The translations under genes were made by a program, and so were the position numbers. From the IMG/VR virus record IMGVR_UViG_3300037067_003400, positions 32,001 through 96,000 of that record: DNA of 64,000 nucleotides; one strand, 5' to 3'. Source of the DNA: a virus. Taxonomy: Duplodnaviria; Caudoviricetes. Shown piece by piece: positions 52,496 to 54,998 of this stretch (the stretch's first letter is position 1; every line of letters starts with the position of its first letter). Under the pieces are notes generated by a model. It did no database searches and was not told the origin of the DNA. It worked only from the letters and a program-made list of their open reading frames with translations.

Positions 52496-52564
52496 TAGAG
52501 CCGGATTGAATGGGTTATCATACTTTTGGTGTATATCAATCTCCCATTCTAAACATTTGCTCTA
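52496..52564 (+). ncRNA. Y RNA-like gene 1
   Basis: TAGAGC-C-GGAT..GAATGGGTTATC / CCCATTC..ATTTGCTCTA; bulged-C terminal helix; upstream of Ro60. Confidence 0.75.
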
Positions 52565-52575
52565 TCTTATAGTTC

Positions 52576-52697
52576 TGAGAGCCGAGGGTGTTAGGTTACC
52601 GTATGTGTAGGGTTTCCTGGGTGTTTCAAACACCTAATTTAAAGGAACCATCTGAACAAAAAGTTCAATCTTATCTAATGCTATTCACTTGCTCTCA
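52576..52697 (+). ncRNA. Y RNA-like gene 2 with a branched internal domain
   Basis: TGAGAGC-C-GAGGGTGTTAGGTTACC / CTAATGC..CACTTGCTCTCA; internal stems GGTTTCCT/AGGAACC, GGTGTT/AACACC, TGAAC/GTTCA. Confidence 0.75.
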
Positions 52698-52730
52698 TTA
52701 TTAAGTTATAATAATACAACGTATTATTAA

Positions 52731-52806
52731 TTAGGACCGGATGTTATAGGTTACCTATCAATTCTTATGCATTGACGCAATTACCTATTGCAGAAACTTG
52801 TCCTAA
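52731..52806 (+). ncRNA. Y RNA-like gene 3
   Basis: TTAGGAC-C-GGATGTTATAGGTTACC / ACCTATTGC..ACTTGTCCTAA. Confidence 0.75.
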
Positions 52807-52827
52807 GTTTTAAGTTAGACTCGCTAT

Positions 52828-52885
52828 GGGGGCGTTGTGTGGGCACAGTCCCGGGAAATATAGGTTCGATTCCTATGCGCCCCCA
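52828..52885 (+). ncRNA. tRNA-like RNA lacking a normal anticodon arm
   Basis: GGGGGCG/CGCCCCC acceptor, ATAGG-TTCGATT-CCTAT T arm, only TCCCGGGA in place of the anticodon arm. Confidence 0.65.
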
Positions 52886-52890
52886 CTTAT

Positions 52891-52950
52891 GGGGAGATAG
52901 TTCAGTGGTAGAACTTCTAGAGAACGTGGGTTCAATCCCTACTCTCCCCG
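52891..52950 (+). ncRNA. tRNA-like RNA with a truncated anticodon arm
   Basis: GGGGAGA/TCTCCCC acceptor, GTTC-AGTGGTA-GAAC D arm, TTCTAGAGAA stub, GTGGG-TTCAATC-CCTAC T arm. Confidence 0.7.
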
Positions 52951-52956
52951 TCGTAT

Positions 52957-53033
52957 GGGAAGATAGTTTAATTGGTAAAGCACTCGGGAATGAACACCTG
53001 AGGATGGCTGTTCGAGGCAGTCTCTTCCCACCA
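52957..53033 (+). tRNA. atypical tRNA (Phe GAA-like) with an expanded anticodon arm
   Basis: GGGAAGA/TCTTCCC-ACCA, D arm, CTCGGG-AATGAACA-CCTGAG (6 bp stem plus 8 nt loop), GGCTG-TTCGAGG-CAGTC. Confidence 0.6.
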
Positions 53034-53055
53034 GTAGAATAAAAGTTTTTAAGAT

Positions 53056-53131
53056 GTGTCGATAGCTCAAATAGTAGAGCACCAGGTTGTGGCCCTGGAG
53101 GCTATGGAAGCATACTCCATTCGATACCCCA
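53056..53131 (+). tRNA. tRNA-His(GTG) with a degenerate T loop
   Basis: GTGTCGA/TCGATAC, C73, CCA, CCAGG-TTGTGGC-CCTGG; T loop AGCATAC. Confidence 0.8.
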
Positions 53132-53214
53132 TTGAACCTATCTACCATGTGTAGAAAAGGTACACACACCAGTGTATAAGGAATAAGCCCCCTTTCTGTT
53201 GTGTGCTTAAGACA

Positions 53215-53273
53215 TTGAGGCCGGATGTTATGGATTATCGGCTAAATTAACCATAGCAATTAGTTTGTCTCAA
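53215..53273 (+). ncRNA. Y RNA-like gene 4 (minimal)
   Basis: TTGAGGC-C-GGATGTTATGGATTATC / CCATAGC..GTTTGTCTCAA. Confidence 0.7.
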
Positions 53274-53402
53274 GAAGATACGTAGAAAGGTATAGCCTTT
53301 CTGAAGCAACCCACCAGAGGATAGGTAGCTATCCTCACCTTGAGGTCTTTGTAGTAATATGAAGACCTCATAAATTTTTGTCTCTATAATTAGGAGGACG
53401 GT

Positions 53403-54998
53403 ATGAAATACACAGATCATTTTGGATTTAAAAAGACCCCACAGTCTGAGCCTATACCATTTTCTAATATGGTAGCTAACTCAGCTGGGGGTTTTTCTTT
53501 CGCCATAGATAAGTGGGTATCTCTTCGGAGATTTCTTATTCTTGGTGCGGAAGGTGGAACGTATTACATTTCAGAGAAGAAGCTTACAGTTGATAATGCT
53601 AAGTCAGCTTTAGCTTGCTTAACTGAAGATGGTAAGAAAACTTTAGATATGGTAAAGGAAGTAAGTGTAGGTGGTAAGGCTCCAAAGAATACTCCTGCTA
53701 TATTTGTTTTAGCTATGGCTATGTCACTACCTGGTGATCAGTTCATAGCTATTAGACAATACGCCGGAGAAATATTCCCAGAAGTTTGTAGAATTCCTAC
53801 ACATGTATTTACTTTTGCTGAATATATGGAAGCTTTCAGAGGTTGGGGTAGGGTAGCTAAGAGATCAGTTGCTAACTGGTATATTAACAAGACTCCCAAT
53901 GATTTACTTTATCATGCTACTAAGTATAAACAAAGAGACGGTTGGAGTAATAGAGACCTTCTTAGATTATCACATCCTAAGTTTACTGGAGAAGCTAATG
54001 AAATTGCTAAGTATATAGTCTCTGGGAAGATTCCTTCCGACGACTGTTCCCTTAGTGAGCATATCCAGATTTTAGAAGAACTTGAGAACTATGACATATC
54101 TAAAGTAGCTGATAGCATAGTTAGGTTTAACCTTCCAAGAGAAGTAATACCTACTAAGTATTTGAAGGAGAAAGTTATTTGGGATGCCTTACTTTATAAT
54201 GGTATGCCAATGACTGCTATGCTTAGGAATCTTGGTAACATGAGTTCTTATGGTGTCTTTGATACAGAGGCTAATGTTACACGTGTATTAGAAGCATTCT
54301 CAAATAGAGAGAGCTTAAAGAAAGCTCGTATACATCCTATATCTATACTTGCTGCCCTAATGACGTATAGCGAAGGTTCTGGAATAAGAGGTAGTAATAC
54401 CTGGGTGCCTAATGAAGATATAGTTGAAGTATTGAATGAAGCTTTCTATAAAAGCTTTGATTTTGTAGAATCTTCTAATAAAAATATTATGATAGGTATG
54501 GATATTTCTGCATCTATGACTTGGAGCGATGTGTCTGGTATTCCAAACCTTACCCCAAGAGTAGCAGCTGCAGCAATGGCTATGGTTACTGCAAAGACTG
54601 AGCCTAATACTTACGTTAGAGCTTTTAGTGATGAGCTTATCCCTATTACTATGCTTCCTAATGATAAGATTGAGTATATGACTGCAAGGATAGAGAAAAT
54701 GCGTGCTGGTAGTACTGATTGCTCTTTACCAATGTTAACAGCCAAAGTTGAGAAGTTAGATGTAGATGCTTTTGTTGTGTACACAGACTCAGAAACTTGG
54801 TGCGGTAGAACTCACCCAGTACAGGCATTGGAACAGTATGAGAAGTTCATAGGTCATCCTGCTAAGCTTATAGTAGTTGGTATGGTAGCTAATGAATTTA
54901 GTATAGCAGACTCAAGTAAGGCTAACATGTTAGACGTAGTAGGCTTTGATACCTCTGCTCCAAGTGTTATCTCGGAGTTTATAGCAGGAAAGATATAA
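53403..54998 (+). CDS. rsr: Ro60/Rsr TROVE-vWA RNA-binding protein
   Basis: NSAGGFSF, LRRFLILGAEGGTYY, KYKQRDGWSNRDLLRLSHP, MPMTAMLRNL, MIDAS DISASM, GSTDCSLPM, YTDSETW, LDVVGFD. Confidence 0.95.
   Translation: MKYTDHFGFKKTPQSEPIPFSNMVANSAGGFSFAIDKWVSLRRFLILGAEGGTYYISEKKLTVDNAKSALACLTEDGKKTLDMVKEVSVGGKAPKNTPAIFVLAMAMSLPGDQFIAIRQYAGEIFPEVCRIPTHVFTFAEYMEAFRGWGRVAKRSVANWYINKTPNDLLYHATKYKQRDGWSNRDLLRLSHPKFTGEANEIAKYIVSGKIPSDDCSLSEHIQILEELENYDISKVADSIVRFNLPREVIPTKYLKEKVIWDALLYNGMPMTAMLRNLGNMSSYGVFDTEANVTRVLEAFSNRESLKKARIHPISILAALMTYSEGSGIRGSNTWVPNEDIVEVLNEAFYKSFDFVESSNKNIMIGMDISASMTWSDVSGIPNLTPRVAAAAMAMVTAKTEPNTYVRAFSDELIPITMLPNDKIEYMTARIEKMRAGSTDCSLPMLTAKVEKLDVDAFVVYTDSETWCGRTHPVQALEQYEKFIGHPAKLIVVGMVANEFSIADSSKANMLDVVGFDTSAPSVISEFIAGKI

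Follow-up and report, generated by a model that had tools for sequence, protein, structure and literature searches.

The 64,000-nucleotide stretch of DNA analysed here (the window) comprises bases 32001-96000 of IMG/VR record IMGVR_UViG_3300037067_003400, the genome of a phage of the class Caudoviricetes. It contains a full-length gene for Ro60 (Rsr), preceded on the same strand by four Y RNA-like elements; a fifth is found elsewhere in the genome. Judged from sequence, the five RNAs are very probably Ro60 ligands which bind via a shared handle, and the locus would encode a phage Ro60 ribonucleoprotein system. Among Y RNA loci it represents a variation on a familiar type: arrays of two to five copies are widespread, and under-described, beside Ro60 genes. 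What is particular here is that all five Y RNAs lack a tRNA-like module and that free-standing tRNA-like genes are interleaved instead. Ro60 is a human autoantigen, and the roles of Ro60 and Y RNAs in RNA quality control are only partly understood. The complete record is 210,951 bp long, has a G+C content of 35.8% and is rated 98% complete; it is present in full in a groundwater metagenome run, possibly the source sample. Of the public runs listed as containing the locus, none is an RNA run.

Y1 (52496-52564, 69 nt), Y2 (52576-52697, 122 nt), Y3 (52731-52806, 76 nt) and Y4 (53215-53273, 59 nt) are encoded on the plus strand, as is Ro60, and lie 130-907 nt upstream of its start codon. The fifth paralogue, Y5, is outside the window (genome 98593-98660, plus strand; 1493-1560 of locus L007). 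It stands alone in a 110-nt gap between two plus-strand genes, 14 kb downstream of Ro60. The motif CCGR-N8-GRTTAYC, a 19-nt degenerate pattern, is common to all five elements at fixed spacing. The pattern CCGRNNNNNNNNGRTTAYC has exactly four matches in the window, all at Y1-Y4, and the whole genome contains five on the plus strand and none on the minus strand; the fifth is at G000:C1:98602. An initial annotation of the window had described Y1-Y4 with their shared motif, a bulged C in each, covarying terminal helices, completely different internal domains and a full-length Ro60 gene downstream. All of this was confirmed, as documented here and below; Y5 was missed, and five interleaved tRNA-like genes were left outside the cluster.

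Each element folds into a terminal helix of 6-9 bp closed by a C-G pair, which is followed by an unpaired C, a G.U pair and an R.U pair. Above the R.U pair are an asymmetric internal loop, an upper helix of 7-9 bp and, directly after it, UUAYC. In Y1, for example, the lower stem is UAGAGC/GCUCUA, the bulged C is at 52502, and the upper stem GAAUGGG/CCCAUUC runs into UUAUC; the terminal helix of Y5 is 9 bp long. Folding z-scores are between -2.0 and -3.1. The C-G closing pair, the bulged C and the G.U pair are invariant in the five copies, and the C is unpaired in 5/5. While the handle is nearly invariant, the apical parts share no sequence, and total lengths range from 59 to 122 nt. The folds of Y1 (a short type), Y3, Y4 and Y5 are unbranched hairpins in which the apical part measures 16-33 nt, and the loops of these four are A/U-rich and not clearly pyrimidine-rich; Y4 is the shortest, with an apical loop of 16 nt. 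Y2 is of a long type with a multi-hairpin insert of 73 nt, in which no T-arm or D-arm motif was found; it scores 46.9 bits with model R2. A soil contig of a relative, represented by a single low-depth contig, contains U53268>C in Y4, which converts a G.U pair to G-C. A sixth candidate from the regular-expression search (genome 119000-119232) was discarded because it falls within a 300-codon open frame, carries U in place of the bulged C and is missed by every model.

Plain MAFFT misaligned the 3' halves of the five elements, so the alignment was bootstrapped from the three copies of similar length, and the first covariance model was trained on Y1, Y3 and Y5 only. This model recovers Y4 (28.5 bits, E 1.7e-4) and Y2 (19.2 bits, E 0.034), and gives no further credible match over the 211-kb genome; rebuilt from five copies, it again gives exactly five matches genome-wide. 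The five-copy structural alignment has a standard pair at 92.9% of pair positions, and two-sided changes affect 11 of 17 pairs. These figures were not attained in 500 shuffles, and displacing the partner strand by 1-3 columns left 35-55% paired. Both helices thus covary among the five copies; the array is more than chance.

The Ro60 gene (53403-54998, plus strand) encodes a canonical, full-length protein of 531 amino acids: a TROVE HEAT-repeat ring (Pfam PF05731, 6.7e-41) and a C-terminal vWA domain (vWA_Ro60, PF25045, 3.5e-57) with the D-x-S-x-S metal-binding (MIDAS) motif. It also matches phrog_850 of PHROGs. Residues 13-530 align to Deinococcus Rsr (2NVO, E 1e-117) and residues 14-527 to Xenopus Ro60 (1YVP); human RO60 (9NEN) likewise aligns end to end. 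The block TKYKQRDGWS matches TKYKQRNGWS of Xenopus (residues 169-178), and KYKQRDGW is conserved with the human protein too. Residues K170 and R174 of Ro60 are presumably Y RNA contacts; the observation is the alignment of the KYKQR block. The vWA residues D367, S369 and S371 are invariant in an alignment of 33 proteins (the phage Ro60 and 32 homologues). The closest homologues are merely about 50% identical, and those from cultured phages, mainly actinophages, reach at most 41%. The locus had no nucleotide match among 50,697 phage records, and a single-protein search of viral contigs found no close relative. Because a near-identical genome for orthologue-level covariation was not found, the comparative evidence comes from distant loci.

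The comparison set consists of 80 viral and 80 cellular loci encoding Ro60 relatives, each with 3-kb flanks. At E<=10 the five-copy model has 140 matches in the viral set, all 140 on the strand of Ro60 and mostly less than 1 kb upstream; at E<=0.01, 58/80 viral loci have a scaffold match. In the cellular set (Chloroflexota, Myxococcota, Armatimonadota, Bathyarchaeota and others), 116/119 matches are on the strand of Ro60. A check which is independent of Infernal, combining a regular expression with stem pairing, gives 117 hits on the Ro60 strand and 3 on the opposite strand for viral loci, and 124 and 7 for cellular loci. An alignment of 91 viral sequences (35-67% G+C) has a standard pair at 95.6% of pair positions, a percentage inflated by the fitting of the alignment to the model, with 425 changes on both sides; when the partner strand is slid, 34-48% are paired. 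The slid controls and the strand bias are the safer evidence, and offset the model-fitting bias in part only. Position C7, the bulged C, is C in 89/91 family members, G8 is found in 91/91, and the G8.U and R9.U pairs are conserved. Also near-invariant are U26 (91), U27 (91), A28 (90) and C30 (90), together with the 3' UUG. At other loci, many long family members have a T arm (GGUUCGAAUCC), a stem and a D arm (UAGCUCA..GGUAGAGC) enclosed by the same handle. The array is downstream of Ro60 at a few loci (L084, L049, L069 and L180), and the scaffold is also present at Ro60 loci without nearby tRNA genes, cellular ones included. The scaffold recurs in about 250 other RNAs next to Ro60 genes of viruses, bacteria and archaea. 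Two other RNAs were seen near such arrays: a wcaG RNA motif (56 bits) between Y-type matches at a viral locus (L040, 1298-1413), and a permuted tmRNA (71 bits) after the Y array of L084 (6433-6657).

The initial annotation knew of phage Ro60 loci with a single Y RNA but of no four-member array; the novelty this implied is only partly borne out, and a four-member array is not exceptional. Two to five copies occur at many viral loci. Four copies at E<=0.01 are found at the viral loci L087, L078/79, L018 and L084, and three at several others; cellular loci such as L163 and L111 have five, and L141 has six only if weaker matches (E up to 0.12) are included. By the strict regular expression, 40/80 viral loci have at least two copies and 3/80 at least four. 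Copy number varies between related loci from 0 to 5 or more. Streptomyces phage Beuffert (MT952852.1; L179, 413-1788) has five matches interleaved with tRNA genes, and Gordonia phage Mareelih (OP820470.1; L180, 2729-5958) has four, interleaved with tRNA genes and a tmRNA, and, apart from these, a partial YrlA match. The present phage is near the top of the range, yet within it; its array is not unique. At least two Y RNAs have been described per bacterium examined, and four small RNAs lie upstream of Deinococcus rsr (PMC4201824). In Listeria phage CKA15, three regions of high transcription precede an Rsr-like gene (PMC12282133). A literature search did not find a paper presenting such arrays as a general feature, and Y RNA annotation is absent in 6/6 GenBank phage records examined. 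In Mycobacterium phage Essence (MK359358.1; L177, 2580-2921), three Y RNA model matches lie under the 'hypothetical protein' genes 229 and 230; these two coding sequence calls are probably spurious.

Five tRNA-like genes are packed together with Y1-Y4, all on the plus strand. T0 (52410-52485) has an anticodon loop CUCAUAA (CAU), a U1:U72 mismatch and a non-canonical T loop, UGCAAUU (Rfam tRNA 39.7 bits). A and B are minigenes, in which perfect acceptor and T arms are kept and the anticodon arm is a mere stub. A (52828-52885, 58 nt) has a 7-bp acceptor stem and a canonical T arm, UUCGAUU, and a stub with UCCCGGGA replaces the anticodon arm. B (52891-52951, 60 nt) has intact acceptor, D and T arms and a 3-bp anticodon stub; it scores 49.5 bits with Rfam tRNA, with 11 model positions deleted. 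The stubs of the two contain UCCCGGGA and UCUAGA. C (52957-53033) has a 6-bp anticodon stem and an 8-nt loop, AAUGAACA (Rfam tRNA 38.1 bits); ARAGORN reports it as 'tRNA-???' with a 4-base anticodon, tgaa. D (53056-53131) has the anticodon GUG, a G3.U70 pair and a non-canonical T loop, AGCAUAC (Rfam tRNA 49.6 bits). The anticodon arms of T0 and D are thus intact and their T loops odd; neither was called by ARAGORN. CCA is encoded in the three genes with anticodon arms (T0, C and D). The spacers among the units of the cluster are 5-33 nt, except for 83 nt ahead of Y4. Between the cluster and the ribosome-binding site of Ro60 are two hairpins (53283-53337), followed by a terminator-like hairpin with a T run (53341-53379, plus strand). 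The short spacers and the terminator-like hairpin suggest a processed polycistronic precursor, like that of Deinococcus Yrn2-tRNA-Asp-Yrn1. An 8-bp pairing which could bring four of the tRNA-like genes into one large stem (52807-52814/53206-53213) was spotted by eye and set aside; it is AT-rich, so plausibly a chance pairing, and no model supports it.

A related phage is represented by a 957-nt contig from a drinking-water metagenome (run X3); as for the soil relative, the evidence is a single low-depth DNA contig. The 5' half of Y1, Y3 and the tRNA-like genes B and C are retained. From the Y1 loop through Y2 (52536-52729), 179 other letters are substituted; gene A is missing (52824-52886 is skipped), and C is followed by a protein gene instead of D, Y4 and Ro60. 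These differences suggest cassette-like turnover of units.

Pfam and PHROGs gave no assignment for the protein genes immediately next to the cluster. Just upstream of the cluster (window 47574-51635) are a ThiF-family E1-like gene (48930-49604, Pfam 5e-17) and an open reading frame for a 67-aa ubiquitin-like protein. Neither this cassette nor the neighbouring reading frames of 231, 86 and 106 aa have a tblastn match (E<=1e-3) within 3 kb of the 160 other Ro60 loci. Downstream, the gene for the ribonucleotide reductase large subunit (window 55639-59133) is split by a LAGLIDADG homing-endonuclease or intein-like insert (residues ~465-549), and an 88-nt tRNA-Asn (window 59128-59215) starts within its last codons.

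The Y RNA assignment is made because the bulged-C helix, its covariation and its linkage to Ro60 hold both here and across about 160 other Ro60 loci; the Y RNA-like identity proposed initially is supported on the same grounds. Several points weigh on the other side, in addition to the inflated pairing percentage of the cross-locus alignment. Y1-Y5 all score under the curated thresholds of Rfam Y_RNA, sbRNA (stem-bulge RNA) and YrlA. Only one promoter-like site was seen at the cluster, a sigma-70-like TTCACT-17-TATAAT directly before Y3 (52684-52712). The RtcB, RNase PH/PNPase (polynucleotide phosphorylase) and CCA-adding enzyme families were not found in the phage genome, and the small apical loops of Y1, Y3, Y4 and Y5 may recruit nothing distinct.

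By analogy with the Ro60 proteins of Xenopus, Deinococcus and a Thermus phage, the handle would dock on the outer face of the Ro60 ring. Docking would stabilise the RNA and gate the central cavity, and the variable apical part would decide what the particle touches. As PNPase/RNase PH, RtcB and the CCA-adding enzyme are missing, the effectors would be host proteins or uncharacterised phage proteins; the likeliest partner would be a 3'-5' exoribonuclease of the host, PNPase for instance, since the phage has no gene for one. Host tRNA-processing enzymes probably release the Y RNAs, which are packed together with tRNA-like genes, from one or two precursors. That different loops serve different partners or substrates is the model held in the field and fits a modular family; it is tentative for this phage, and we rate its chance somewhat below even. 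The proposal of the initial annotation, that one ring may be loaded with interchangeable adaptor RNAs carrying different effector modules, agrees with that model.

The five RNAs could also be genuine Ro60 ligands which are functionally redundant and kept in several copies for dosage, timing or robustness, with loop differences reflecting drift. We consider such redundancy unlikely, if well worth weighing. It would suit the short apical parts of 4/5 RNAs (16-33 nt, with no recognisable module), the free variation in copy number between related loci (0 to 5 or more) and the swapped or lost units of the X3 contig. However, duplication for dosage should leave copies more alike than these are, with loops that have no sequence in common against a near-invariant handle, and the inserts at other loci are clearly different modules (tRNA-like versus plain hairpins).

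It is very improbable that the elements are Ro60-binding sites within a long leader of the Ro60 mRNA, acting in feedback control of Ro60 synthesis. Four copies do lie directly upstream of Ro60 on its strand, most with no promoter-like site ahead of them, but the terminator-like hairpin stands between them and the ribosome-binding site, tRNA-like genes with processing signals are interleaved, Y5 is 14 kb away among unrelated genes, and at L084, L049, L069 and L180 the array is downstream of Ro60. Least credible is that the elements serve the tRNA cluster as ligands or processing signals, such as spacer hairpins recognised by RNase E, RNase III or RNase P, and have nothing to do with Ro60, their proximity to it merely following from the placement of Ro60 genes in tRNA regions of phages: phage Ro60 genes are frequently in or beside tRNA arrays, but the handle copies the motif contacted by Ro60 in animal and Deinococcus Y RNAs (PMC4201824), is found at Ro60 loci with no tRNA genes nearby, cellular ones included, and in this genome is absent from the other tRNA clusters (147.9-156.1 kb), occurring only in the Ro60 cluster and at one further site. 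Both of these readings are thus made unlikely by the distal Y5, the downstream arrays, the terminator and the handle-free tRNA clusters.

With the RNAs taken as Ro60 ligands, the locus has value as a clean, minimal example and as an entry point to a broader, under-described pattern. Phage Ro60 systems are compact and tractable. One canonical Ro60 with five minimal Y RNAs which differ only apically forms a natural test set for the function of the variable part, and the separate tRNA-like RNAs make it possible to ask whether a tRNA-like module has to be attached to the handle. The result across loci outweighs the single phage: viral Ro60 genes, and many cellular ones, are as a rule accompanied by arrays of several Y RNA genes whose core is of the animal type, with both helix strands and UUAYC. 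Such arrays fall below all Rfam thresholds and have no annotation in the GenBank records of phages; some are hidden there under 'hypothetical protein' calls. Beuffert and Mareelih are cultured phages and are available for experiments. The initial annotation had proposed a covariance model and a search of the flanks of other Ro60 genes; the three-copy model found the other two elements and nothing else credible in the genome, and the flanks yielded the scaffold at the 58/80 viral loci, with covariation in the related loci.

A comparison with Rfam had also been proposed; all scores are below threshold and nothing overlaps with YrlA. For RF00019 Y_RNA (threshold 38 bits), Y5 scores 25.2 bits over the full model and Y1-Y4 are unlisted at E<=10. 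For the nematode sbRNA family RF01656 (ceN72-3/ceN74-2; threshold 38 bits), Y1, Y3 and Y5 score 24.9, 19.3 and 31.4 bits. Y5, which aligns end to end with both the vertebrate Y_RNA and the nematode sbRNA consensus, is the copy most like both. For RF02553 YrlA (gathering threshold 69 bits) no match overlaps Y1-Y5, and the sole weak match (17.8 bits) is on the tRNA-like genes A/B. A viral Y-type RNA beside Ro60 at another locus (L042, 2714-2787) scores 38.1 bits against RF01656, just above the threshold; either it is a cross-kingdom homologue, or the sbRNA threshold admits prokaryotic Y RNAs.

The YrlA and YrlB RNAs of bacteria and phages, known from Salmonella, Mycobacterium smegmatis and mycobacteriophages, have a 5' GNCGAA motif, which resembles the GGUCCGA contacted by Xenopus Ro60, and their genes are within 2 kb of rsr (PMC4201824). 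The handle of the present RNAs reads GNCCGRA. YrlA/YrlB and Deinococcus Yrn1/Yrn2 (PMC4201824) are alike in lying near rsr (~2 kb) on the same strand, several per locus, with a GNCGAA-type motif, and the Deinococcus Yrn2-tRNA-Asp-Yrn1 unit is polycistronic with a tRNA, as the present cluster appears to be (PMC4201824). In their predicted folds, Y1, Y3, Y4 and Y5 appear to resemble YrlB/Yrn2, which form a 'long hairpin with small loop'. YrlA differs in that it contains a tRNA-like module (T arm, acceptor-like stem, D arm), which none of Y1-Y5 has; the five tRNA-like genes of the cluster may be free-standing counterparts of this module. Both strands of the bulged helix are kept here, whereas only the 5' strand is recognisable in the Y RNAs of Salmonella and M. 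smegmatis. The present RNAs have UUAYC at a place where the Rfam YrlA consensus does not, and there are five of them rather than two. In cultured actinophages, in which RNAs of the YrlA type are expected, matches of the broad model enclose partial Rfam YrlA matches: 2590-2718 around 2626-2690 in Sparky and 2678-2817 around 2714-2791 in Essence (both Mycobacterium phages), and 567-698 around 600-664 in Beuffert. These enclosing matches and the YrlA design of the long family members place the present RNAs among the prokaryotic Y RNAs.

Two Yrl RNAs encoded upstream are ligands of the Ro60 protein of Thermus phage phiLo, which also enters a complex with PNPase of the host (PMC12135203; PDB 9KOP, 9L5Y). 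By its published description that system is alike in having a phage Ro60, upstream Y RNA-like genes with a stem-bulge-stem and a CGAA-type motif, and no phage PNPase; it differs in having two RNAs rather than five. The phiLo protein was not among the sequence matches of the present Ro60 to solved structures.

In animals, sbRNAs and vertebrate Y RNAs have in common the motif UUAUC, which is conserved and needed for function (PMC4726728). The likeness to the present RNAs extends to the CCGA/UUG bulged-C site, the 16 nt from CCG to the end of UUAYC, and an upper helix which ends in GGG/CCC. The differences are the absence here of a Pol III terminator U-tail, the phage operon context and scores of 19-31 against 38 bits; the A/GUG-CAC upper-stem motif linked to DNA replication in animal Y RNAs is not conserved. 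In sequence, the core of the present RNAs appears closer to animal Y RNAs than to the Rfam YrlA consensus, because both helix strands, the 16-nt spacing and UUAYC are kept. According to a review, there is no homology between the Y RNAs of bacteria and those of vertebrates (PMC4726728), and the shared core makes this statement testable. A joint reading, which we put forward as a speculation and think somewhat doubtful, is that the scaffold is the same ancestral Y RNA core as in animals and that this phage has unbundled the YrlA design. If so, handle-only Y RNAs would be accompanied by free-standing, anticodon-less tRNA-like RNAs acting in trans; UUAUC, hitherto tied to animal DNA replication, would primarily be a feature of the Ro60 particle; and Y RNAs and Ro60 would have spread jointly through viruses and every domain of life.

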